A stretch of 64,000 nt of DNA. Source: a virus. The notes beneath the pieces are model-generated. The model was not told where the DNA came from, ran no database searches, and worked only from the letters and a program-made list of their open reading frames with translations. Where the stretch lies: positions 1-64,000 of IMG/VR virus record IMGVR_UViG_3300037180_000021; one strand, given 5' to 3'. This document shows, one piece after another, positions 18,366 through 41,737 of the stretch. A program made the position numbers and the translations under genes. Every line of letters starts with the position of its first letter. Positions within the stretch are counted from its first letter, which is position 1.

Positions 18366-18896
18366 ATGCCCGGAGGAAGACCGACAGCGTATGATCCAGA
18401 GTGCATCAAGATCGTCAAGGCGATGGCGAAGCTAGGGGCTACTAACGCGGACCTTGCTTCTGAGTTTGAAGTTAGTCACGCGACTATTGATAATTGGATG
18501 ATAAAACATCCTGAGTTTTTAGGCGCCTTAAAAGAAGGTAAGGAAGCTTTTGACCAACGTATAGAGCGTTCTTTAGCTCAAAAAGCGATTGGTTATGAAC
18601 GCCCAGTGGTAAAGACTACGACATTTGAAAATGAAGATGGCGGCACGACCGTTTCAACAGTGGAATACGTAGAGCATGTCCCGCCTGACACAACGGCCTG
18701 TATCTTCTGGCTCAAAAACCGCAAGCCGAAAGAATGGCGGGACCGGCATGAATTTAGCGGGGACCCGGAAAATCCGCTCCAAATTGTCCATGCTGTCCAG
18801 CTTATCGTTACCGACTCTCGGGAAGACTGGGACAAAATTGCTGCCGATAGGGATCGCCTCTGTCTTCCTGCCCCTGAAGGAAGCGGCGAGGTATAA
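18366..18896 (+). CDS. terS: terminase small subunit
   Basis: GRPTAYDPECIKIVKAMAKLGATNADLASEFEVSHATIDNWMIKHPEFLGALKEGKEAF is the typical HTH-type TerS N-terminus. It sits directly upstream of terL. Confidence 0.8.
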   Translation: MPGGRPTAYDPECIKIVKAMAKLGATNADLASEFEVSHATIDNWMIKHPEFLGALKEGKEAFDQRIERSLAQKAIGYERPVVKTTTFENEDGGTTVSTVEYVEHVPPDTTACIFWLKNRKPKEWRDRHEFSGDPENPLQIVHAVQLIVTDSREDWDKIAADRDRLCLPAPEGSGEV

Positions 18897-20613
18897 GGGC
18901 GCACACGGCGGTCGCGGTAGCGGCAAGTCGCATTTCTTTGCCGAGCAGCTAATCATTCATTGTCTTGAGCATCCCGGCTTACGCGCCGTGTGCCTGCGTG
19001 AAGTTCAGCAGTCTTTGAAACAATCTTCCAAGCTTTTGCTCGAAGACAAGATTGTCTTGTTCAGGGTGGGAAACCAGTTCCGTGTGCTGGAGGATCGTAT
19101 AGAGACGCCCGGCGACGGTATCATTATCTTTCAGGGCATGCAGAATCACACGGCCGAGTCGATCAAGTCGCTGGAAGGTTACGACATCGCTTGGTTTGAC
19201 GAAGCGCATCGCGCTAGTAAATTCTCGTTAGGTCTTTTGCGCCCCACGCTTCGTAAGCAGCACTCGCAGTTGTGGTTCTCCTGGAACCCAAATAGTGATT
19301 CCGATCCAGTTGAAGAATTGCTGCGTGGTCCGGAGCGACCTAAAGACTCGATCGTCGTCGAGGCCAACTATTCCGATAACCCGTTGTTCCCCGACGTGCT
19401 CCGCGAGGAGATGGAGTACGACAAGCGCCGCGATCCTGACCGCTACGCCCATGTCTGGATGGGCAAGTACCAAGTGGCGAGTGAGGCAAGAGTATTTAGG
19501 AACTGGAGGATCGAGGAGTTTGAGACGCCGAGGGACGCCAGGTTCTACATGGGAGCTGACTGGGGGTTCGCGGTCGACCCTACAGTGCTTGTCCGCTGTT
19601 TCATCAGCGGTCGCACCTTATTTGTCGACTTTGAAGCTTGGAAGGTTGGCTGTGACATCGACCACACTCCGGCGTTGTTCGCCGGCGGCAGCAGCGAGTG
19701 GCAGAACCCGTACGGCTGGCAGGGCATCCCCGGCGCGCACGACTGGCCGATCATCGCGGACTCGTCTAACCCGCAGGCGATCAGCTACCTGAAGCGCTTC
19801 GGCTTCAACATTGAGCCGGCAATAAAAGGTGTAGGAAGCATTGAGGAAGGAATTACGTTTCTAAAAAGCTACGATATTGTCGTGCATCCTAGGTGCAAGC
19901 ATGTTGCTGATGAGCTGGCAACGTATAGCTACGAAACCGATAAGAAGACTGAAGAAGTCTTACCCAAGCTTGCGGATAAGAAGAATCACTGTGTGGCAGA
20001 AGGCACACTGGTGACTTGTGAGCGTGGCGATGTCCCTATCGAGCAGGTGACGACTAAGGACAGCGTGTTGACGCGTGGCGGTTACCGGCGTGTGTTGTTT
20101 GTTGGGCAGACTGACGTCCAGCGTGAGACGTTGTTGGTTCGCACGACCGCTGGATCTGTGCGCTGTACGCCGGACCACAAAATTTACACGAGTAGAGGGT
20201 TTACGCGGGCTGATGCACTAAGCGGCGAGCTTCGAAGGTTGATGATGTCGAGCGAATCTGCGTTGAGTGTGATAAACATTTCTGGCGGAACAAGTACACA
20301 CAGACACAAACTTGTTCACGGTCGTGTGCTAACCGTTACCGATGGCGGCATCGCCGAGCGGGTTTATGATTTGACTGTTGAGGGTGACCACGAGTTCTTT
20401 GCTGGTGGCGTGCTGGTTCATAATTGCATAGACTCGCTGCGCTACGCGGTGGAGAACGAGCGCCGCGCCACCTACGACAGCTCGCTTAGCTGGGTAGGAT
20501 ATCCCACGATCGAGGAGCGCAAGAAGACGGGAGAGCTGGAGGACCCGACCGTGCCGCCGCACTTCGTGCCGGGGCGACTGGCCCGCATCGACTGGAACGC
20601 AAGAGGACGTTGA
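18790..20613 (+). CDS. terL: terminase large subunit, interrupted by a mini-intein
   Basis: ARYKGAHGGRGSGKSHFFA (Walker A) and nuclease motif KKNH / CIDSLRYAVE split by the intein. The start is uncertain: ATG at 18790 or in-frame TTG at 18838. Confidence 0.85.
   Translation: MLSSLSLPTLGKTGTKLLPIGIASVFLPLKEAARYKGAHGGRGSGKSHFFAEQLIIHCLEHPGLRAVCLREVQQSLKQSSKLLLEDKIVLFRVGNQFRVLEDRIETPGDGIIIFQGMQNHTAESIKSLEGYDIAWFDEAHRASKFSLGLLRPTLRKQHSQLWFSWNPNSDSDPVEELLRGPERPKDSIVVEANYSDNPLFPDVLREEMEYDKRRDPDRYAHVWMGKYQVASEARVFRNWRIEEFETPRDARFYMGADWGFAVDPTVLVRCFISGRTLFVDFEAWKVGCDIDHTPALFAGGSSEWQNPYGWQGIPGAHDWPIIADSSNPQAISYLKRFGFNIEPAIKGVGSIEEGITFLKSYDIVVHPRCKHVADELATYSYETDKKTEEVLPKLADKKNHCVAEGTLVTCERGDVPIEQVTTKDSVLTRGGYRRVLFVGQTDVQRETLLVRTTAGSVRCTPDHKIYTSRGFTRADALSGELRRLMMSSESALSVINISGGTSTHRHKLVHGRVLTVTDGGIAERVYDLTVEGDHEFFAGGVLVHNCIDSLRYAVENERRATYDSSLSWVGYPTIEERKKTGELEDPTVPPHFVPGRLARIDWNARGR
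19990..20424 (+). other. mini-intein (145 aa, no endonuclease domain) in terL
   Basis: Begins CVAEGTLVTC (block A), has RCTPDHKIYT (block B), VYDLTVEGDHEFFA (block F), and ends GVLVHN followed by Cys+1. Confidence 0.8.
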
Positions 20614-30303: not shown

Positions 30304-31371
30304 TCAACATGCAGGCTCTAGGGATTGACGGGTGCCATGACTGACATTCGGGTGCGTCCACTCGCCGCTATACAGCCCGTCATAGGTCGGGCTTTCCCCG
30401 TTTGCGCCGATGCCCAAGAGCGAGCGGAAGGCGTTGAACGGGTAGAAGCGGCGATTGAAACGGAAGGTAAATTCATTGAGGTAGGCTTGCAGGTGCTTAG
30501 GCTCGATGCGCCCGTGGTGAGTACCTTGCAGCCAAGCCTTGAGGTTGCTGAAAACAAGGTGAACGATAGGCAGGTATTCTTCGGCCACCTCGGGCTTGTT
30601 CGACTCGACAACCGGCATGTGGGCGTAGCCGCGATCAGCCAGCGAGTTGTAGCCGCCCCAAGCGTCGGTAACGACCATGTTGGACGTAGGATCGACCGCT
30701 GCCTCTACAAAGCCGCACAGGGACTTGGCGGTACGGTCGGGGACAATTTCCAGCCTGAGACGGCCAGCGTAGCGCCCGCCACGCCTTTCGGGCTTGTCGC
30801 CCTTCTTGGGCGGTCTGGTGCGAACCTCGACGGCGGCGACCACAAGCGTCTTTTGGTCGGCATGTGGGCCTTTGCCCTCCCCGCGCAGCACGCCGCCGAT
30901 ATAGGTTTCGTCGATTTCAATATGGTCCCGGCCCGAAATGCTGCCGCCGATCCGGTCGCGGTCTTGGCGCACCATACCGGCGCGAAGCTTGTGCAGGATG
31001 CCAAAGGCAGTTTCATACCGGGTCAAGCCAAGCTGGCGCTGGAATTGAACGGCAGACAGGCCGGGCGTCATGCTGGAAATGAGGTAAGCGCCCCAAAACC
31101 AAGTCGTCAGCGGTGTATGGGTGCGCTCCATGACCGTGCCGACCGTCAGAGAGGTTTGCTTACGGCACTTCCGACACGCCAGCACAAGCGGGCGTTTGGC
31201 AATGCGTACAGGCTCGCCACGGGCTTTGCAGTGCGGGCATTGGAAGCCGTCAGGCCATTTTGCGCCTTCCAGATAGCGACCGCAGGCCGCGTCGTCCGGG
31301 AACAGTTTTTGGAACTGCGGCAGGGACTTGGGGAAGGGCAGGTGTTCCCATTTGTGAATGTCGTGGGTCAT
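30304..31371 (-). CDS. IS1595-family DDE transposase
   Basis: Start MTHDIHKWEHLPFPKSL. Zn-ribbon FQCPHCKARGEP...LACRKCRKQTS, then THTPLTTWFWGAYLI, YETAFGILHKLR and a DDE region. Confidence 0.85.
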   Translation of the reverse strand: MTHDIHKWEHLPFPKSLPQFQKLFPDDAACGRYLEGAKWPDGFQCPHCKARGEPVRIAKRPLVLACRKCRKQTSLTVGTVMERTHTPLTTWFWGAYLISSMTPGLSAVQFQRQLGLTRYETAFGILHKLRAGMVRQDRDRIGGSISGRDHIEIDETYIGGVLRGEGKGPHADQKTLVVAAVEVRTRPPKKGDKPERRGGRYAGRLRLEIVPDRTAKSLCGFVEAAVDPTSNMVVTDAWGGYNSLADRGYAHMPVVESNKPEVAEEYLPIVHLVFSNLKAWLQGTHHGRIEPKHLQAYLNEFTFRFNRRFYPFNAFRSLLGIGANGESPTYDGLYSGEWTHPNVSHGTRQSLEPAC

Positions 31372-31375
31372 GTGG

Positions 31376-31627
31376 CTAGTAGAATTTCCGTTCAAGATAA
31401 ATCTCCCCGTCGAAGTGATCAAAGGGACAACACTCAAGCTCTTTGTCGGTCGTCTCCGGGTCAACAAGACCATCGCAAGCCCATACACCATGGCCCTCAT
31501 ATTCGAGCGTGCCGCCGCATACAGGGCATTTCTTCGGAACAAATCGTCCGTTGTTATCTCTCGGTGATAGGGGCGTCAGGGATTTAGGGAAAGGCAGTTT
31601 TTCCCAGTTGTGAATGTCGTGGATCAT
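31376..31627 (-). CDS. small Zn-ribbon protein sharing its first 16 residues with the transposase
   Basis: MIHDIHNWEKLPFPKSL... then CPVCGGTLEYEGHGVWACDG. Confidence 0.5.
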   Translation of the reverse strand: MIHDIHNWEKLPFPKSLTPLSPRDNNGRFVPKKCPVCGGTLEYEGHGVWACDGLVDPETTDKELECCPFDHFDGEIYLERKFY

Positions 31628-33291: not shown

Positions 33292-35397
33292 ATGATGGGT
33301 AAGCTGACGCTGTTCCGCGACAACCTCGTCAACTTCGTGACGGGCCTCGGCACGTGGAAGGACCCGTCAGCAAGCCTGCGCTACAATTTGAATTTGGTCC
33401 AACGTGACCAGCTGGAGAACGCCTACCGCAGCGACTGGATCTCCAGGCGGCTGGTTGACGCGCCGGCCGACGACGCCGCCCGAGAGTGGCGCCAGTGGCA
33501 CGCGTCCCAGGACCAGATCGAGGTCATCGAGGACGTCGAGCGCGAGCACAACATCCAGAAGAAGCTGCGGCTGGCGCTGATCCGCGCCAGGCTGTACGGC
33601 GGCGCCGGCATGGTGCTGGGGGTGGACGATGGTAAGCCTGCGGAGGAACCACTGGACATCGACGCCGTCGGCAAGGACGCGCTCAAGTTCGTGGTGGTGA
33701 TGAACCGCTACGAGCTGGCCGCGGGACCTCGCATCTACAACGTCGAGTCGCCGTGGTACACCTACCCAGAATACTTCACGGTGCAGTCGCCGCTGTTCGG
33801 CTTCTACGGAGAGAAGGGGAACAGTCAGCCCGAGAGCTGGCAGGGGCAGGCCGGCGATCCTGCGCGGCAGGAGACGCCGCAGTCAGGCATGGTGCGCATC
33901 CACCCCAGCCGCGTGGTGCAGTTCGCCGGTGCCGAGCTGCCTGACTGGCGGCTGGTGCCGCTGGGCGGCCTGTGGGGTGATAGCATCTTACAGGCGGTTG
34001 AGGACATCCTGAAGAAGTTCGGCATGACCGTCGGCGGCCTGGCCGCCATGGTCAACGATGCCAAGATGGACGTGGTCAAGATACCAGAGTTCAGCAAGAA
34101 GATCTCCACGGCCGAGTACGCCAACCAGCTGATCGGACGCTTCAGCGCTGCCAACCAGGCCAAGTCTGTCATCAACACGCTGGTCCTCGACACCAACGAG
34201 GAGTGGGAGCGGGTGCAGACCAACTTCGGCGGCGTGCCGCAGGTGTTGGAGAAATTCATGACGCTGGCCTGCGCGTCCGCCGGCGTGCCGTTCTCACGGG
34301 TGTTCGGCCAGCAGAGTCGCGGCCTCGGCGGCAACGAGCACAGCGGTGCCAGCAGCGACGTCAAGAACTACTACGATATGATCGCTGCGGACCAGAAGAA
34401 TGTCTACACCCCGGCGCTGGACACGCTCGACCAGGTGCTGCTGCGCTCCGCGCTAGGCAAGTTCGACCCCAACGTCTACTACGAGTGGAACCCTCTGTCG
34501 CAGCCCGACCCCAAGGAGATCGCGGCCATCAGCTTGCAGAAGGCCCAGGCCACGCAGGTCTATATGACGGGTGGCTTGATCAACGAGGACGCACTGCGCG
34601 CCGCCGTAGTCAACCAGCTGATCGAGGACGGCGTCTATCCTGGGCTGGAAGACGCCATCGACGAGTTCGGCGAGGAGCCGGATGAGCCCGACGGCAGCTT
34701 CGACCCGCAGTCTGGTGCCCCCATCCCCGGCTCACCGGTCCAGGCAGCGATGGAACAGATGAAGGCGAGCGGCAACGGGGGCGACAAGCAGGTCGGTGAC
34801 GCCAAGGAGCCGACGCGGCGGCCGTCGCTGATGCGAAAGCGCACGTATCGTGACTTCAGGAAGATGAGGGATAGCGCGGAGTACTTCGACCGCCTGTCAC
34901 TTCTATCTGTTCGAGATGCTATCCCGCGCACGCTGTACGTGCGGCGTGACGTGCTAAACGGCGACGACATTGTGAAGTGGGCCAAGGCGCAGGGTTTCTC
35001 CACCACACTCCCAGCGGCAGCTATGCACGTCACCATCGCGTTCTCAAAGACGCTGGTTGATTGGATGAAGATGGGCAACGACTATACCGGGGACGACAGG
35101 GGTCGATTCACCGTGCCGCCCGGCGGAGTACGGCTGCTGGAGCGGCTAGGCGACGCCGTGGTCCTCATGTTCTCTTCGTCGCAACTGGCCTACCGCCACG
35201 AGGGCATGAAGAAAGAAGGTGCTAGCTGGGACCATCCTGAGTACCAGCCGCACATCACGGTCAGCTGGGATGTGCCCGAGGATTTTGATCTAGATGCTGT
35301 CGAGCCATACCGTGGGCCGATAAAGCTGGGGCCAGAGATATTCGAGCCGGTGAAGGAAGACTGGAAGTCGACCATCCACGAGGACGCAGCAGAGTGA
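33292..35397 (+). CDS. portal protein (DUF1073-type) fused to a C-terminal 2H-phosphoesterase-like domain
   Basis: The N-terminal ~470 aa resemble DUF1073 portals (FVTGLGTWKDPSAS...SDWISRRLVDAPADDA...). The C-terminal ~155 aa carry two HxT motifs, AAMHVTIAFS (H579) and QPHITVSW (H654). Confidence 0.75.
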   Translation: MMGKLTLFRDNLVNFVTGLGTWKDPSASLRYNLNLVQRDQLENAYRSDWISRRLVDAPADDAAREWRQWHASQDQIEVIEDVEREHNIQKKLRLALIRARLYGGAGMVLGVDDGKPAEEPLDIDAVGKDALKFVVVMNRYELAAGPRIYNVESPWYTYPEYFTVQSPLFGFYGEKGNSQPESWQGQAGDPARQETPQSGMVRIHPSRVVQFAGAELPDWRLVPLGGLWGDSILQAVEDILKKFGMTVGGLAAMVNDAKMDVVKIPEFSKKISTAEYANQLIGRFSAANQAKSVINTLVLDTNEEWERVQTNFGGVPQVLEKFMTLACASAGVPFSRVFGQQSRGLGGNEHSGASSDVKNYYDMIAADQKNVYTPALDTLDQVLLRSALGKFDPNVYYEWNPLSQPDPKEIAAISLQKAQATQVYMTGGLINEDALRAAVVNQLIEDGVYPGLEDAIDEFGEEPDEPDGSFDPQSGAPIPGSPVQAAMEQMKASGNGGDKQVGDAKEPTRRPSLMRKRTYRDFRKMRDSAEYFDRLSLLSVRDAIPRTLYVRRDVLNGDDIVKWAKAQGFSTTLPAAAMHVTIAFSKTLVDWMKMGNDYTGDDRGRFTVPPGGVRLLERLGDAVVLMFSSSQLAYRHEGMKKEGASWDHPEYQPHITVSWDVPEDFDLDAVEPYRGPIKLGPEIFEPVKEDWKSTIHEDAAE

Positions 35398-35807
35398 GCG
35401 ACGTATTCGACCCCTACGCGGTGCTCGACCCGCTTCGCATGGAGCGGCAGATCAATGAGCTGTCAGCCGGCGGTGGCTCTGGAGTCAGCGTCACTGACGC
35501 CGGCAACGGCAACGTCGTCGTCACTCCGTCGCCCGGCACTGGCACGTTCACGCTCGACGTGAACCCAACGCAGATGCACATTGGAGCTGTTCTCATAACG
35601 TCGTCTGCAGGAGGAGTTGGCTTGGCTGCCCCAAGCGGCGTTGCCGGGATAGCTGGGGAGATCGCTGAAGTGGTCGGACCGAGCAGCCAAGCACTTCAGA
35701 TCAATAGCACTGGTATTATCCTGGTGGGGCTGCCGTCTTCTGACCCACACGTTCTTAATGCGCTGTGGGTTGAGTCCGGTGGAGCATTGATGGTGAGCGC
35801 GGGATGA
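35394..35807 (+). CDS. hypothetical Gly-rich protein
   Basis: 137-aa ORF, coupled on both sides. Confidence 0.5.
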   Translation: MSDVFDPYAVLDPLRMERQINELSAGGGSGVSVTDAGNGNVVVTPSPGTGTFTLDVNPTQMHIGAVLITSSAGGVGLAAPSGVAGIAGEIAEVVGPSSQALQINSTGIILVGLPSSDPHVLNALWVESGGALMVSAG

Positions 35808-35977: not shown

Positions 35978-36141
35978 GGGAGCAGCAGACGCAGCAGCTC
36001 GCCTACGAGAAGTTCTGGCCGTCGGCGCGTATCCCCACCGGCACGGTGGGCCAGTTAGACGTGCGCTCTGGCCTGGTGTGGCCGTCTGGCGACTCGCGCT
36101 CGCCGTTCGCCACCTCCTCCGGTTACGTGGTGCAGAGCTGA
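35974..36141 (+). CDS. small hypothetical protein (55 aa, GTG start)
   Basis: VREQQTQQLAYEKFWPSARIPTGTVGQLDVRSGLVWPSGDSRSPFATSSGYVVQS. TGATG overlap with the next gene. Confidence 0.3.
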   Translation: MREQQTQQLAYEKFWPSARIPTGTVGQLDVRSGLVWPSGDSRSPFATSSGYVVQS

Positions 36142-38030
36142 TGCTGCTGGGAACTAACCGGAAGCCGTTCTATGACCAGCGCAAGGTTCTCGTAGAGGAC
36201 GCGCGCCCGCGCCCGTACGACCCCACCGGCACCGGCCCGCTGCGCGGCAAGTTCCGCAACGACCTTGATCGCCGCTGGGCCAAGCTGCGGCAGCTCGCCG
36301 TTAGCGCCTTGACCGACCACGGCATGGCCGACCCCACGGTGCAGTCGATCACTCACGCTATGCAGCTGGCGCAGACCGACAAGGTGCCGATGTTCACGCG
36401 GTGGATGGAGGAAGCAACTCGCCAGGTGATGACCAACGAGGACCGCTTCGTCAACATGTACATTTGGCGCGCGGGGGAGGCCGCTGATCCGCAACTGCCG
36501 ACTAACAGTCGCGCCGCCAATGTCATGTCCGACCTCGCTTGCGCTGAGCTTAAAGGCATCTGCGCTGCGGTAGTGCAGCAAGCCACCAGAGTCGTGGCCA
36601 ACGGGCTGCTGGCCAATAAGAAGCCGGCGCGGATCGCGCGCGACGTGGCGGCGATGATCAAGGCGGTCGGCGTTAGTCGCGGTCGTGCCCTAGCCAACTT
36701 CATGGTGGTGAAGGCTTACAATTGTGCGCTGCTGGACATGTTCCGCCGGCAGGGCGTCACGCACGTCGGAGTGATGGCGGAGAGAATTAGAGTTAAGCGC
36801 GGGGCGCACGGGCTGACGCGGGATGCCGACGTCGATCTCTCCACCGTCGAGGTGCTCACGGCTGGCGACGATGACGTCTGCCCTACTTGTGAGGAGATCA
36901 GCAATGATGGCCCCTACGCGCTGGACGACGCCGAGGGGCTGATCCCTGCGCACCTGAATTGTGTTTTACCAGGGGCTATTGTTGAAGGACAGGTTTTGGC
37001 GTCTCTAAAATCCTGGTATTCTGGTCCAGCTATTGAGATTAGTACGAGAGGTGGGAAAAGACTTAGCGTCACTGGTCAACACCCCGTACTGACATCGCTC
37101 GGGCCTGTTGTGGCTCAAGATATTTGCGAGGGAATGAAGCTTCTTTGCAAGAGTGAGGATTTTAGGGGTAGCTCCGTTGGTTTTAATGATTACTACAGTC
37201 CACCTCTTATTGAGGAGATATTTGATGCGCTTAGGGTTCAGGGATGCTGCCTTGTCCCCCCAAGCAGTGATGATCTCCACGGCGATGCGAGGCTTATCAA
37301 TGGTGATGTCGACATTGTAGCGGTAGATTGGCGTTTGTTGCGTTACATCCAGTTTCAGTTCGCAAAGCGCGGCAGCAAGCTCATTCTCCCATTTACCAAC
37401 ATGGGACATGTGGAACTGCTTAGACTTGCTGCGGTGAAGCAGCTCCTTTCTCGACGCTTTGCGTCCTTTGGCAGCTTTCCAAGCTCCGGAGCACTGACGT
37501 CGGACCGCCCTGCGACCTTTTTTCTTGATCAGCCCCCATTTAAGATACTCAGCTTCGGAAGCGGATCTCAGTTTGATACCCCCTTTCATGAAACATTTGC
37601 CAAGTACCCCTCGTCCTATTCCAGTTTGATCCGAAAGGTTTTTCATAGAAGTTCCGGCCAAGTAACCATTGATAAGTTGACGAAGCTGTCCTCTCTTAAA
37701 AATAATCTTGGGTCGTCCGGGATTTCTAAGTACGTCCTTGAGCAGGCTGTAAATTTCTCTTCGAGGTATGCCCAGTTTTTTAGTGATCTTATGACCCGAC
37801 AACCCTTGTTGATAGAGATGGATGATGTCGTTTCGGTCCGCAGCTTTAACTATGTGGGACATGTTTATGACCTCCAGACGTCTGTTGGATACATGATAGC
37901 ACAAAAAATCCTTTTGTGTAACTGCCGCTGTGCGTTCGTGCCGGCTGAGGACTTGCGGTTCGCTCCGGTGCGCGACGCCTTCGACCCGGACGAGCCGCGT
38001 GATGAGCATGGGGAGGAGAGTGATGAATAA
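36141..38030 (+). CDS. head morphogenesis protein (Mu F / SPP1 gp7 family), interrupted by an intein
   Basis: Hallmark C-terminal motif GDDDVCPTCEEISNDGPY...IPAHLN / CRCAFVP is split by 321 codons. Start MLLGTNRKPFYDQRK chosen. Confidence 0.75.
   Translation: MLLGTNRKPFYDQRKVLVEDARPRPYDPTGTGPLRGKFRNDLDRRWAKLRQLAVSALTDHGMADPTVQSITHAMQLAQTDKVPMFTRWMEEATRQVMTNEDRFVNMYIWRAGEAADPQLPTNSRAANVMSDLACAELKGICAAVVQQATRVVANGLLANKKPARIARDVAAMIKAVGVSRGRALANFMVVKAYNCALLDMFRRQGVTHVGVMAERIRVKRGAHGLTRDADVDLSTVEVLTAGDDDVCPTCEEISNDGPYALDDAEGLIPAHLNCVLPGAIVEGQVLASLKSWYSGPAIEISTRGGKRLSVTGQHPVLTSLGPVVAQDICEGMKLLCKSEDFRGSSVGFNDYYSPPLIEEIFDALRVQGCCLVPPSSDDLHGDARLINGDVDIVAVDWRLLRYIQFQFAKRGSKLILPFTNMGHVELLRLAAVKQLLSRRFASFGSFPSSGALTSDRPATFFLDQPPFKILSFGSGSQFDTPFHETFAKYPSSYSSLIRKVFHRSSGQVTIDKLTKLSSLKNNLGSSGISKYVLEQAVNFSSRYAQFFSDLMTRQPLLIEMDDVVSVRSFNYVGHVYDLQTSVGYMIAQKILLCNCRCAFVPAEDLRFAPVRDAFDPDEPRDEHGEESDE
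36960..37922 (+). other. intein (321 aa) in the Mu F-like gene
   Basis: Starts CVLPGAIVEG, has LSVTGQHPVLT (block B), VGHVYDLQTSVGYMIAQKILLCN (blocks F/G), then Cys+1 of CRC. No in-frame LAGLIDADG or HNH motif seen. Confidence 0.7.
37005..37862 (-). CDS. putative homing endonuclease (two HTH segments plus Vsr/DUF559-like PD-(D/E)XK) encoded antisense inside the intein
   Basis: MSHIVKAADRNDIIHLYQQGLSGHKITKKLGIPRREIY...YLAGTSMKNLSDQTGIGRGVL...GKWENELAAALCELKLDVTQQTPIYRYNVDITIDKPRIAVEIITAWGDK...WTVVIIKTNG. 285 aa with protein-like composition, in an AT-rich segment. Confidence 0.55.
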   Translation of the reverse strand: MSHIVKAADRNDIIHLYQQGLSGHKITKKLGIPRREIYSLLKDVLRNPGRPKIIFKRGQLRQLINGYLAGTSMKNLSDQTGIGRGVLGKCFMKGGIKLRSASEAEYLKWGLIKKKGRRAVRRQCSGAWKAAKGRKASRKELLHRSKSKQFHMSHVGKWENELAAALCELKLDVTQQTPIYRYNVDITIDKPRIAVEIITAWGDKAASLNPKRIKYLLNKRWTVVIIKTNGATPKILTLAKKLHSLANILSHNRPERCQYGVLTSDAKSFPTSRTNLNSWTRIPGF

Positions 38031-38373
38031 TAAACTGATGAACGACACCTCGGCCGAGGCCGTCAACGTCGGCCTGGGCAAGCCGGCGCCGGCTCAGGTA
38101 GGCCCGGACCCGCGGCTGATCCACGAGCTGGCCACCTACGTCAGCAAGGTCGGCATCGGCGCCGACCTCAACGCCTTCATCGCTGCACTCGCAGTCGTGG
38201 CCGGCGGCATGATCGGCGGCTACTGCGCCACGGCCGAGGCTGTGGACAATACTATAGGCGGCCACAACGCGATCGTTGCCTCGCAGGCCCGGTTGCGCTG
38301 GCGCACTAACCAGGACGCCAAGAAGAAGGAGCACGATGAACGTGCCGCACAACAGCAAGAAAAAGTTCAGTAA
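38023..38373 (+). CDS. hypothetical protein
   Basis: Start MNNKLMNDTSAEAV overlaps the Mu F stop. One hydrophobic segment, AALAVVAGGMIGGY. Confidence 0.45.
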   Translation: MNNKLMNDTSAEAVNVGLGKPAPAQVGPDPRLIHELATYVSKVGIGADLNAFIAALAVVAGGMIGGYCATAEAVDNTIGGHNAIVASQARLRWRTNQDAKKKEHDERAAQQQEKVQ

Positions 38374-40177
38374 GAACTTAGACGCCTCGTTTTCCTCCCT
38401 CATACGCCAGCTCGAGGACGCTCAGCAGGGTCTCAGCTTCGAGACCAGCGAGGAGAGCGAAGATGTCACCTGCCCACAGTGCGACACCGTCTATCCCAAA
38501 GAACAAGAACACTGCCCCAACTGCGGAGCGACGAATATGAGAGACCACTCTATCCAGATGTTCGACGCCTTCGTGGTTGACGGCGTGCGCAGGACAAGCG
38601 ACGGCTACCTGACGTGCAACGCACGCGTGGCGCGCACCGGCATCCAGACCTACAAGGGCTCCGAGCTGGGACGCCCGGACCTCGGCGAGGTCCGCGTCTA
38701 CCGCCCGCCGAGCGAGGTATTCAGCAAGGACGCCATGCACTCCATGGCGCACCGGCCGATAACGCTGAACCACCCCAGCGAGCAGGTCAACGCCGCCAAC
38801 TGGAAGAAGTACGCGATAGGCCACACCGGTGACGAGGTGGTGCGCGACGGCGACGTCATCCGCGTGCCCATGGTGGTGATGGACGCCGCGGCGATCGACG
38901 CCATTGAGAGTGGCAAGGCGAAGGAGCTGAGCGTCGGCTACACCACTGACCTGAAGTGGAAGAAGGGAACCACCGACAAGGGCGAGACCTACGACGCGAT
39001 GCAGACTGCTATCCGAGGCAACCACCTGGCCGTGGTGCCGGTGGCCAGAGGCGGCGACAAATTGAGAGTTGGCGACGATGACTCTGTGCAGGAGATCGAC
39101 CCCGACTCTCTCCACTATCTCCGCGTCATGACCCATCACAAGTCGGCACCGGTAGTCAAGAAATTGGCGGCGGCGGACCTGAAGTCTTTGCTGACCACCA
39201 ACTACGGTGACGCCATCGGCACGGCAAAATACGATGAGTATTGTGCTGGGCTTGATCTGGACGACGCCGCGGTCGACGACCGCGGGTTCTCTGAAGAGGA
39301 CCGCAAGAAGCTGGCCAAGTCCGGCGCCGCGCTACCCGGCGGCGGCTTCCCGATCAAGACGGTGGAGGACTTAAAGAACGCCGTCAGGGCCATCGGCCGC
39401 GCCAAGGACCCGGCGGCGGCCAAGGCTCACATCATTTCTCGCGCCAAGTCTCTAGGCGCGACGAAGGAACTACCCGCCGACTGGGTCAAGTCGAAAACAA
39501 GCGACGCTCAAGAACAAGGAGAAAAAACTATGAGCGCTATCGTAACCATCGACGGCAGCCCGATCGAAGTTGCCGATGAGCTGTCTGCCAGTGTCATCCG
39601 CAAGCAGATTGCCACTCTGATCGCCGACAAGGCGGACCTGAAGGGCAAGCTGGACAAGGCAGCAGCCGACAAGGAAGAAGAAGATGAGGAGAAGGTCCGC
39701 GGCAAGAAGGCCGTGGACGCCAAGGACGGCGAGATCGCTGCGCTCAAGAAGCAGCTCGTCGACGCGCAGGCCGGGGCCACTCCGGCAATCCTTGACAAGC
39801 TGGTCAAGGACCGCCTCGCCGTGATCGACCGTGCCAGCAAGATCCTGGACAAGGCGTTCTCGTTCGACGGCAAGTCGAACTCCGACATCGCCCGCGCGGC
39901 GGTCGCCAAACACTACGGCGACTCATTCGTCAAGGACAAGTCGGACGACTACGTCGCCCCGTTGTTCGACGCGATCGACGTCAAGGATGGCGACAAGGGC
40001 CGCAATACCGGCCATCGCAATCTTGGACGCGCCATTGGTGACGCAGCCAGGCGGCATGGTAACAGCTCCGGAGACAGCAGCGTTGACGTCCGCGACGCGG
40101 CGTTCGCCGACATGGAGAAGGACCTCAACAACGCTTGGCGCCGCCCGCACGCCGCCGGCGGCGGCGACGGCAAGTAA
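38336..40177 (+). CDS. DUF2213-like scaffold/prohead protein with N-terminal Zn-ribbon and C-terminal coiled coil
   Basis: CPQCDTVYPKEQEHCPNCG, then RRTSDGYLTCNARVARTGIQTYKGSELG...VRVYRPPSEVFSKDAMHSMAHRPITLNHP (DUF2213 pattern from memory). Position is between the Mu F-like gene and the capsid gene. Confidence 0.55.
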   Translation: MNVPHNSKKKFSKNLDASFSSLIRQLEDAQQGLSFETSEESEDVTCPQCDTVYPKEQEHCPNCGATNMRDHSIQMFDAFVVDGVRRTSDGYLTCNARVARTGIQTYKGSELGRPDLGEVRVYRPPSEVFSKDAMHSMAHRPITLNHPSEQVNAANWKKYAIGHTGDEVVRDGDVIRVPMVVMDAAAIDAIESGKAKELSVGYTTDLKWKKGTTDKGETYDAMQTAIRGNHLAVVPVARGGDKLRVGDDDSVQEIDPDSLHYLRVMTHHKSAPVVKKLAAADLKSLLTTNYGDAIGTAKYDEYCAGLDLDDAAVDDRGFSEEDRKKLAKSGAALPGGGFPIKTVEDLKNAVRAIGRAKDPAAAKAHIISRAKSLGATKELPADWVKSKTSDAQEQGEKTMSAIVTIDGSPIEVADELSASVIRKQIATLIADKADLKGKLDKAAADKEEEDEEKVRGKKAVDAKDGEIAALKKQLVDAQAGATPAILDKLVKDRLAVIDRASKILDKAFSFDGKSNSDIARAAVAKHYGDSFVKDKSDDYVAPLFDAIDVKDGDKGRNTGHRNLGRAIGDAARRHGNSSGDSSVDVRDAAFADMEKDLNNAWRRPHAAGGGDGK

Positions 40178-40217: not shown

Positions 40218-40742
40218 ATGTTGCAGCCCGCACCAGTCCAACAGTACTACAACCGCTACCTCACTTCTGGACAGAACGGCATGCCCGCGACGTCCACGGG
40301 GTGGGACATCGACACTCGCATCTGCGAGGATTACTCCGGGAACGGCATCGGCTTCGGCCTCGTAGTCTCGCAGGGCTTGTCGACCGACCGTGCCGCGGTG
40401 CTCGGGGCCCACGGCGGCACCCAGGCGCTCGGCATCACGGTCAGCGACATTACGCTGCCGAACGTGGTCTCCCCCGGTCCCGACCGCTACCAGAACACCG
40501 ACAACATGGCCGTGGCCGTGCGCGGTGACTTCTGGGTCACGGCCGCCACCAACGTGACGGCAGGGTCGCCGGTGTACTTCGACCCGTCCACCGGGCAGCT
40601 CGGCGATACTGGCACGCTGCTCGAGGGTGCCATGTGGATGACGTCTGCCACCATCGGCCAGCTGGCATTTGGCGCGCAGACCGAGTCACCCAACTTGGCC
40701 GTGGTTCGCCTGGCGCTGAACACCGGCAACGTCAACACCTAA
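40218..40742 (+). CDS. possible capsid decoration/cement protein
   Basis: 174-aa ORF immediately upstream of the major capsid gene. Call is by position only. Confidence 0.35.
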   Translation: MLQPAPVQQYYNRYLTSGQNGMPATSTGWDIDTRICEDYSGNGIGFGLVVSQGLSTDRAAVLGAHGGTQALGITVSDITLPNVVSPGPDRYQNTDNMAVAVRGDFWVTAATNVTAGSPVYFDPSTGQLGDTGTLLEGAMWMTSATIGQLAFGAQTESPNLAVVRLALNTGNVNT

Positions 40743-40780: not shown

Positions 40781-41737
40781 ATGCGTTTGAACTTGTACGA
40801 TGACCAGGAGGCGCTGAGCTTCCTCGTGTCGCAGACCACCTACATCGAGGCAGAGGTATATCGGATTCAGTACCCCGAGATCCTCTACAAGCAACTGGTG
40901 CCGGTCGACTCGTCCGCCAACGAGTGGGCGAAGAGCGTCACCTACTTCAGCATGGACAAGGTTGGCCACGCCGATTGGTTCTCTGGCCAGGCCAGCGACA
41001 TGCGCTTCGCAGACATCAACCGCAACAAGTACGAGCAAGGTATCGAGATGGCCGGCATCGGCTACCGGTACACGCTCGAGGAGATCGGCGCCGCCATGAT
41101 GGTGCCGGGCCTCAATCTTACGGCTGAGCGGGCCGAGGCGGCGCGCTTTGCCTACGAGATGTTCGTGGATCGGTTGGCCTACTTCGGTTCCACAACCAAG
41201 AACACCTACGGGCTGTTCAACGCCCCGACGGTGACGGTGGCAGAGGCGATCGCCGACGGCACCGGCAGCTCGCCGCTGTGGACCACCAAGACGGCGGACC
41301 AGATGATACGCGACGTCAACAACGCGCTGACGGCCGTGTACACCGGGTCGCAGACCGTCGAGCTGGCCGACACCGTGCTGCTGCCGTTGCAGGCGATGTC
41401 GATCCTGTCCAACACCCGCGTGCCCAATACCTACGGCAACGCGCTTGACTACCTGGCGAAGTACAATCAGTACACCTTCCTCACCGGGGCGCCGCTGACC
41501 ATCCGCGGCATCATCGGTCTGGACACCGCTGGTCACGCCGGCCAGGGGCGGCTGGTTGCCTATCGTAAGGACCCGCGGGTGGTGAAGCTTCACGTCCCGA
41601 TGATCCACCGCTTCTTGCCGGTGTGGCAGACTGGACCGATCACGTTCGAGATCCCCGGAATCTTCCGCGTCGGCTCGGTCGAAGTGCGTCGGCCGGCGGC
41701 GTTCCAGTATCTCGACGGAATCACGTCCAACTCGTAA
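40781..41737 (+). CDS. major capsid protein (DUF2184 / HK97-fold type)
   Basis: MRLNLYDDQEALSFLVSQTTYIEAEVYRIQYPEILYKQLVPVD...GIGYRYTLEEI. Followed by a strong terminator. Confidence 0.7.
   Translation: MRLNLYDDQEALSFLVSQTTYIEAEVYRIQYPEILYKQLVPVDSSANEWAKSVTYFSMDKVGHADWFSGQASDMRFADINRNKYEQGIEMAGIGYRYTLEEIGAAMMVPGLNLTAERAEAARFAYEMFVDRLAYFGSTTKNTYGLFNAPTVTVAEAIADGTGSSPLWTTKTADQMIRDVNNALTAVYTGSQTVELADTVLLPLQAMSILSNTRVPNTYGNALDYLAKYNQYTFLTGAPLTIRGIIGLDTAGHAGQGRLVAYRKDPRVVKLHVPMIHRFLPVWQTGPITFEIPGIFRVGSVEVRRPAAFQYLDGITSNS

Follow-up and report, generated by a model that had tools for sequence, protein, structure and literature searches.

The stretch of DNA analysed here (the window, 64,000 nucleotides) covers positions 1 to 64,000 of the IMG/VR virus record IMGVR_UViG_3300037180_000021, a phage genome that encodes an SNF2 helicase, a DNA polymerase, an exonuclease and a primase. 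Its head module contains a plus-strand gene (33292..35397) whose product is a portal protein fused to a C-terminal 2H phosphoesterase domain of the type found in the anti-CBASS (cyclic-oligonucleotide-based antiphage signalling system) protein Acb1. The gene is a single uninterrupted open reading frame (ORF) of 701 aa, and no stop separates the core from the tail; metagenome gene callers chose the second ATG (33295), which gives a 700-aa product. From the N-terminus, the protein consists of a portal core with C-terminal crown helices extending to ~aa 465 (33409..34686, +), a flexible linker of ~aa 466-541 (34687..34914, +) and the Acb1-type domain (34915..35394, +), which is entered through a DAxPR boundary motif starting at D542. 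A preliminary description made from the sequence alone had proposed this order of portal core, linker and 2H-like tail and had considered that the extension might be missing from the translated product, whereas one continuous ORF encodes it together with the core.

The gene product is a portal of the Phage_portal_3 family, as a profile match, a portal-like model and its place in the head module all agree. Pfam PF06381 (Phage_portal_3, formerly DUF1073) covers aa 40-422 with E 3.6e-85, in line with the DUF1073-type core that had been proposed. A full-length AlphaFold2 (AF2) model was of modest quality, with a predicted local distance difference test (pLDDT) score of 66.8, and was used for linker disorder and portal matches only. 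When this model was compared with solved structures using Foldseek, the top match was the portal of cyanophage Pam3 (8hds_A, E 1.4e-20), followed by the E217, T1 and Pa193 portals. The PHROG 146 family, labelled 'portal protein', aligns over aa 1-693, showing that its profile already includes the Acb1 tail.

The tail carries two H-x-T motifs at the positions first proposed for them, H579-V-T581 (35026..35034, +) and H654-I-T656 (35251..35259, +). The two histidines lie within AAMHVTIAFS (H579, nt 35026-35028) and YQPHITVSW (H654, nt 35251-35253), and the spacing estimated as about 75 residues is exactly 75. Since about one H-x-T tripeptide is expected by chance in 700 aa, two of them alone are weak evidence, and domain-level evidence was needed. 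Such evidence came from Pfam PF23474 (Anti-CBASS protein Acb1), which matches aa 546-693 with E 1e-39 to 4e-41; its score of 136 bits is above the cut-off of 27, and the match takes in positions 1-143 of the 144 in the model. The generic LigT_PEase family gave a weak match (E 1e-4 to 3e-3, 18-22 bits) that falls under its cut-off of 23.3, and the tail alone also matches PHROG 755, which bears the legacy label 'RNA ligase'. At the sequence level, the tail matches Acb1 of the Erwinia phage FBB1 (PDB 7t26) with a phmmer E value of 1.6e-10, and a sequence search of solved structures matched it to the C-terminus of the Pam3 portal (8hds, aa 463-619) with E 1.9e-32.

For aa 536-701, AlphaFold2 run with 28 sequences gave a model with a mean pLDDT of 91.9 and a predicted 2H fold. 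Its best Foldseek matches are the Acb1 structures 7t26/7t27 (E 1.1e-7, template modelling (TM) score 0.76 on the target), followed by the phosphodiesterase of Burkholderia phage BCSR5 (PDB 9q2y) and then by E. coli LigT and other 2H enzymes; 2H enzymes or proteins of 2H fold make up the 35 best PDB matches, among which are all those at E <= 0.001. By profile match and predicted fold, the tail is thus a 2H phosphoesterase domain, and specifically one of the Acb1 type. The structure prediction that had been suggested as a check on the 2H claim places Acb1 nearest and LigT lower, and so sharpens a superfamily-level assignment to a family.

Conservation was assessed in an alignment of 68 homologous domains with 38-63% identity to this tail. 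H579, T581 and H654 are invariant in 68/68, which answers the earlier concern that the two histidines might not be conserved in homologues, and the position of T656 holds threonine in 57/68 and serine in 7/68 (T or S in 94%). Y549, R552, N556, W591, R614, R635, P653, G675, G680 and E682 show little or no variation, and the pattern of catalytic residues recurs in an alignment of 30 full-length fusions.

Residue roles established for Acb1 by Hobbs et al. 2022 (PMC9117128) were transferred to the tail by sequence alignment only, using T4-like Acb1 and the 7t26 alignment. In this mapping the catalytic pairs H44/T46 and H113/T115 correspond to H579/T581 and H654/T656. The base-stacking residue Y12 is matched by Y549, the adenine-specific contact E141 by E685 and the stacking lid residue W147 by W691. 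Two further base-stacking positions differ: F107 is replaced by H648, at a site that varies among Y, W, H and F across the family, and W74 by E617, which is non-aromatic and not conserved. As judged from these alignments, no catalytic residue has been lost and the ligand cage is largely kept.

The fusion is genuine. An identical 700-aa protein (P0036) is encoded on 7 independent metagenome contigs from several samples, which rules out faulty assembly or a frameshift as the source of the joined portal and Acb1. The GC content of core and tail, overall and at third codon positions (GC3 0.89 versus 0.74), gave no clear sign of recent acquisition.

The linker begins with an acidic and proline-rich segment, EEPDEPDGSFDPQSGAPIPGSP, as first described, and also holds a basic stretch, RRPSLMRKRTYRDFRKMR, that had gone unmentioned. 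In the full-length model, pLDDT falls below 50 at aa 466-481, 490-518, 525-528 and 532-543, which together make up most of aa 466-543. Among 30 fusion homologues the linker varies between 26 and 88 aa, is rich in P, D, E and K and cannot be aligned, and it ends at a conserved boundary, DAxPR(T/S)LYVRRDVLN. The linker (~75 aa) is therefore predicted to be disordered and is hypervariable. Internal starts that could give a free Acb1 domain were also considered, and neither the ATG at 34830 nor that at 34864 is preceded by a convincing Shine-Dalgarno sequence at the proper spacing. In the Pam3 portal the C-terminal barrel is the innermost part (PMC9942802), so an extension beyond that barrel should point into the capsid interior.

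To survey the architecture, a profile of the tail was searched against 1.84 billion cluster representatives, which matched 3590 clusters at E <= 1e-3, of which 1254 reached E <= 1e-30. Architectures were tallied for the best 150 of the 3590 representatives. Acb1 sits at the very C-terminus of this same portal core in 87 of the 150 and is followed by further domains in another 25, while 12 carry it on other or divergent portal families (PF06381, PF04860, PF06074). Portal fusions thus total 124 of 150 across at least three portal families, 112 of them with this core, and the same C-terminal extension that the preliminary description had suggested looking for is common. Nine more are prohead proteases (XkdF-type S78_2, DUF2213 and S78), sometimes with ChaB, NUDIX or ADP-ribosyltransferase domains, and the remainder are short proteins or fragments. 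No fusion to tail, capsid-shell or terminase proteins was found among these 150. This Acb1 subfamily occurs predominantly in the form of portal fusions, and the partners seen in this set are limited to head-interior proteins.

About 30 cultured-phage records carry a portal-Acb1 fusion, annotated merely as portal, head or hypothetical protein. They include Synechococcus phages Ssp-JY39 and Yong-M2-251, Rhizobium phages RHEph04/05/06 and many of the RHph series, P. syringae phages phiPSA1, psageB2, psageK9, MR15 and PSA-2T, Pseudanabaena phage Pam3 and Aminobacter phage Erebus. Protease-Acb1 fusions also occur in cultured phages of Ruegeria/Roseobacter (DSS3P8, vB_RpoS-V10) and Edwardsiella (vB_EpM_ZHS). 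In the protease fusions, the same Acb1 subfamily occupies the N-terminus of DUF2213, XkdF-type S78_2 or S78 proteases (P0241, P0261, P0265, P0162, P0025), often together with ChaB, NUDIX or ADP-ribosyltransferase domains. Close homologues of the portal (P0037-P0155) use the C-terminus as a swappable cargo site, where His_Phos_1, ADP-ribosyltransferase (PF03496/PF01129), NUDIX, zeta toxin/AAA_33, Phage_Mu_F, DUF3489 or CDO_I domains replace or join Acb1, and some of these cargo-bearing portals reach 1000-1200 aa. One candidate standalone Acb1 (P0014) was set aside: on its 32-kb contig (L006) the terminase, portal, MuF and protease genes are each split into short pieces, as an assembly rich in indels would give, and the short protein probably derives from a fusion gene broken by a frameshift. 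Many other short 'standalone' metagenomic matches may likewise be fragments of portal fusions.

The preliminary description knew of no described portal-2H fusion, a view contradicted by the abundance of the fusion, by the span of PHROG 146 over the tail and by the literature. Portal-2H and MuF-2H fusions were described by Iyer, Burroughs, Anand, de Souza and Aravind in 2017 (PMC5512222) and again by Iyer et al. in 2022 (PMC9503650), with the proposal that they are packaged in the head, injected and counter nucleotide immune signalling, so the central idea of the preliminary description had already been published. The 2017 paper proposes that such 2H domains are either RNases or degraders of nucleotides from nucleotide-activated defence systems, and reports that these 2H versions are never associated with RNA ligases. 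This prior description was found only under the name 2H phosphoesterase; searches under Acb1 found no paper on a portal-fused form, and the 2022 Acb1 paper (PMC9117128) mentions neither portals nor fusions. The gene studied here is a further example of a known, widespread architecture and not a new principle.

The head module around the fusion is of the Pam3/E217 type, in the order portal-Acb1, a 137-aa ORF, a MuF-like gene, a DUF2213 protease, a cement protein and the major capsid protein. The prohead maturation protease (38336..40177, +) belongs to the DUF2213/Pa193_gp24 family (PF09979 E 3.8e-53; PHROG 530 'head maturation protease' E 1.6e-97). Its start was placed at 38336 from the homologous call in a related contig (L002), which gives a 613-aa product. 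The longest ORF begins at 38276 (38276-40177), and in this reading aa 49-96 show several weak, sub-threshold zinc-ribbon matches, leaving both the start and the zinc ribbon uncertain. Downstream lie a cement protein of the Pam3 gp6/E217 gp24 type (40218-40742, +; PF22758 E 1.5e-24) and the major capsid protein (~40781-41737, +; PF09950 E 1.1e-76 and gene calls in L002). A megablast of the 30-40 kb part of the window against cultured phages returned no nucleotide relative, so there is no close reference genome.

Several features of this region stand apart from the fusion itself. The large terminase (18676-20613) lies ~12.7 kb from the portal, an unusually large distance within a head-packaging module, occupied mostly by small or unassignable ORFs and an insertion sequence. 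The latter encodes an IS1595-family transposase (30304-31542, -; DDE_Tnp_IS1595 E 3e-32, with a zinc ribbon) ~1.7 kb upstream of the portal, and the same element sits at the same place in a related contig (L003). Immediately downstream, the 137-aa ORF (35394-35807, +) overlaps the portal stop, starting at the GTG in ...GAGTGA. Neither Pfam nor PHROG gave a match for it, but its position is conserved in 4/4 related contigs (L002-L005), where two tiny ORFs (57 and 55 aa) follow before the MuF-like gene.

The MuF-like head-morphogenesis gene (36141..38030, +; PHROG 758 and 15127) contains an intein-like insert of 321 aa (~36960-37922) that starts with CVLPGA and ends with LLCN, followed by a +1 Cys. 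The Pfam Intein_splicing match is weak (E 3e-5, under the cut-off), the penultimate residue is Cys where His is usual, and a weak Phage_Mu_F match over the junction (E 0.012) appears solely after in-silico splicing. The insert splits its host protein at ...PAHLN|CRCAFVP..., a site that we take to be the conserved MuF 'H-x-N-C-R-C' motif.

Taken together, we favour as probable a model in which this portal carries a catalytically competent Acb1 domain on a disordered tether, directed to the capsid interior, and in which the domain is cleaved free and injected as a counter-signalling enzyme. The substrate, packaging, cleavage and injection in this model are what we infer from homology, geometry and partner genes. 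By homology to T4 and FBB1 Acb1, the HxT/HxT tetrad would cleave 3'-5' bonds in adenosine-containing cyclic di- and trinucleotides without a metal, which would silence CBASS and possibly also cyclic triadenylate (cA3)-type immune signalling. The portal nucleates the prohead as a dodecamer, and each head could therefore enclose up to 12 copies of the domain. A cut in the hypervariable linker, for which the DUF2213 prohead protease is the probable enzyme, would then free the domain to enter the next host along with the DNA. Proteolytic release is possible because this protease is encoded downstream in the head module, and cleavage would be obligatory for delivery since the portal itself stays in the capsid.

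Capsid-interior targeting is most likely the purpose of the fusion. Among the best 150 representatives the effector domain rides on portals and prohead proteases, an architecture of effector on head-interior carrier, and because these partners are limited to head-interior proteins drawn from at least three portal and three protease families, targeting to this compartment appears to be what selection acts on. The effector-type cargo that sister portals carry at the same position (ADP-ribosyltransferase, NUDIX, zeta toxin, histidine phosphatase, MuF) supports this reading.

Several observations weigh against parts of this model. No conserved cleavage motif was found in the linkers of the 30 homologues, where the DAxPR domain-boundary motif alone is conserved, and a domain still covalently attached to the portal cannot be injected. 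In the deposited Pam3 portal (8hds chain A), 442 of 621 residues are modelled and the Acb1-like domain lies outside the modelled part; a Foldseek search with the tail model does not retrieve 8hds. Because of this coverage and the missing match, the Pam3 domain is either flexible in mature virions or absent from them. The main text of the Pam3 paper (PMC9942802) describes the five canonical portal parts only and says nothing on the C-terminal domain, a protease or coverage, and a search of the literature found no biochemical or proteomic evidence for any portal-Acb1 fusion. According to PMC12991175, CBASS fires at a late stage of infection, and an injected enzyme would then be less necessary. 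In addition, the loss of the W74 stacking residue (E617 in the alignment) means that the substrate range may differ from that of T4 Acb1.

The late timing of CBASS leads to a second explanation, which we rate as possible though distinctly less likely, in which the same anti-signalling enzyme is not injected and acts late in the producing cell. Fusion to the portal or the protease would tie both the synthesis and the location of Acb1 to prohead assembly, when CBASS is triggered, and tethered domains on free portals or in open proheads would take up cyclic nucleotides locally. According to a 2026 preprint (PMC12991175), the CD-NTases (cGAS/DncV-like nucleotidyltransferases) of CBASS are activated by phage prohead proteases, with signalling right after prohead formation, and the nine protease fusions among the best 150, together with those in cultured Ruegeria/Roseobacter and Edwardsiella phages, put Acb1 directly on this trigger. 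The failure to find a cleavage motif in the linkers also speaks for this explanation, and a late-acting domain need not traverse the portal channel. Timing alone, however, predicts fusions to any late protein, whereas the partners among the best 150 are head-interior proteins only; an enzyme sealed in a head full of DNA has no access to the cytoplasm; and the ADP-ribosyltransferases and toxins on sister portals are typical of injected effectors. The two explanations are compatible, and both could operate together. In a tentative version that spans them, carriage on the portal or prohead protease would serve to bring the antidote to where and when CBASS is triggered, so that it neutralises the signal arising as heads assemble; in addition or instead, ~12 pre-made copies, freed by a cut in the linker, would be injected and forestall signalling in the next host. 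A link between Acb1-protease fusion and protease-triggered CBASS was absent from the literature searched.

It is improbable that the tail is instead an RNA-end enzyme, namely a LigT-like 2',3'-cyclic phosphodiesterase, a 2'-5' phosphodiesterase or a Usb1-like RNase that acts, for example, in repair after anticodon-nuclease attack. The 2H superfamily does include such enzymes, E. coli LigT is a significant structural match, and an RNase role was also considered by Iyer et al. 2017 (PMC5512222). Yet the weak LigT_PEase match, at 18-22 bits, compares with 136 bits for the Acb1 model, the nearest fold is Acb1, and both the Glu that contacts adenine in Acb1 and its lid Trp are conserved. The label 'RNA ligase' on PHROG 755 and on many GenBank homologues is a legacy annotation of T4 57B, which is Acb1. 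These 2H versions are reported to lack any association with RNA ligases (PMC5512222), and no RNA ligase or polynucleotide kinase was found among the annotated ORFs of the window. Finally, that the tail is a catalytically irrelevant structural appendage, as its position outside the modelled part of the one solved portal carrying Acb1 might suggest, or that the fusion is a sequencing or gene-calling artefact of the kind seen in standalone homologues from frameshifted contigs, is effectively excluded by the conservation of catalytic His and Thr across 68 domains at 38-63% identity and by recurrence, both as an identical 700-aa ORF on 7 contigs from different samples and in hundreds of independent fusion clusters.

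If the domain is packaged and delivered as we propose, a ready-made eraser of cyclic-nucleotide alarm signals would enter the cell before any gene expression, which would change how the timing of CBASS versus phage is modelled, and the portal C-terminus would be a natural cargo-display site for phage engineering. Portal-Acb1 genes are almost always labelled plain 'portal protein', so their counter-defence content is under-annotated. Cultured carriers with tractable hosts, such as phiPSA1, the Rhizobium RHEph phages and Pam3, make the published hypothesis directly testable, and confirmation of either the antidote at the trigger or the injected enzyme would show experimentally for the first time that a portal acts as carrier of an anti-immune enzyme.

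Among known systems, the tail most resembles Acb1 itself (T4 gp57B; FBB1 Acb1, PDB 7T26/7T27; PF23474), with which it shares a full-length profile match, the predicted 2H fold, the HxT/HxT tetrad and the equivalents of Y12, E141 and the lid residue W147. It differs in that Acb1 of T4 and FBB1 is a free protein of 152 aa, whereas here the domain forms the C-terminus of a 701-aa portal. The T4 and FBB1 proteins are only ~25-30% identical to the portal tail, whose family has its own invariant or near-invariant residues (R552, N556, W591, R614, R635). E. coli LigT and cellular 2H phosphoesterases share the 2H fold and HxT/S motifs, but match far more weakly (TM ~0.5, sub-threshold in Pfam) and differ in size and context, and the domain studied here has no RNA-ligase partner.

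The closest solved portal, Pam3 gp3 (PDB 8HDS, 30% identity), likewise ends in an Acb1-like domain and belongs to the same module of cement and major capsid proteins, but has a shorter linker than the portal described here. T4 provides a precedent for delivery from within the head: its ADP-ribosyltransferase Alt and its internal proteins are targeted to the head, released by the prohead protease and co-injected with the DNA. Together with MuF-toxin fusions, these virion-delivered effectors (cf. the introduction of PMC5512222) follow the same head-interior logic, using a capsid-targeting sequence or a MuF carrier where the carrier here is the portal. Closest in both architecture and proposed role are the 'polyvalent' or cargo proteins with portal-2H and MuF-2H fusions of Iyer and colleagues, whose two papers are purely computational; the one from 2017 came before the Acb1 assignment, and the later one makes no use of it. 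To that proposal the present analysis adds that the partners of this domain include the prohead protease, which is now a reported trigger of CBASS.

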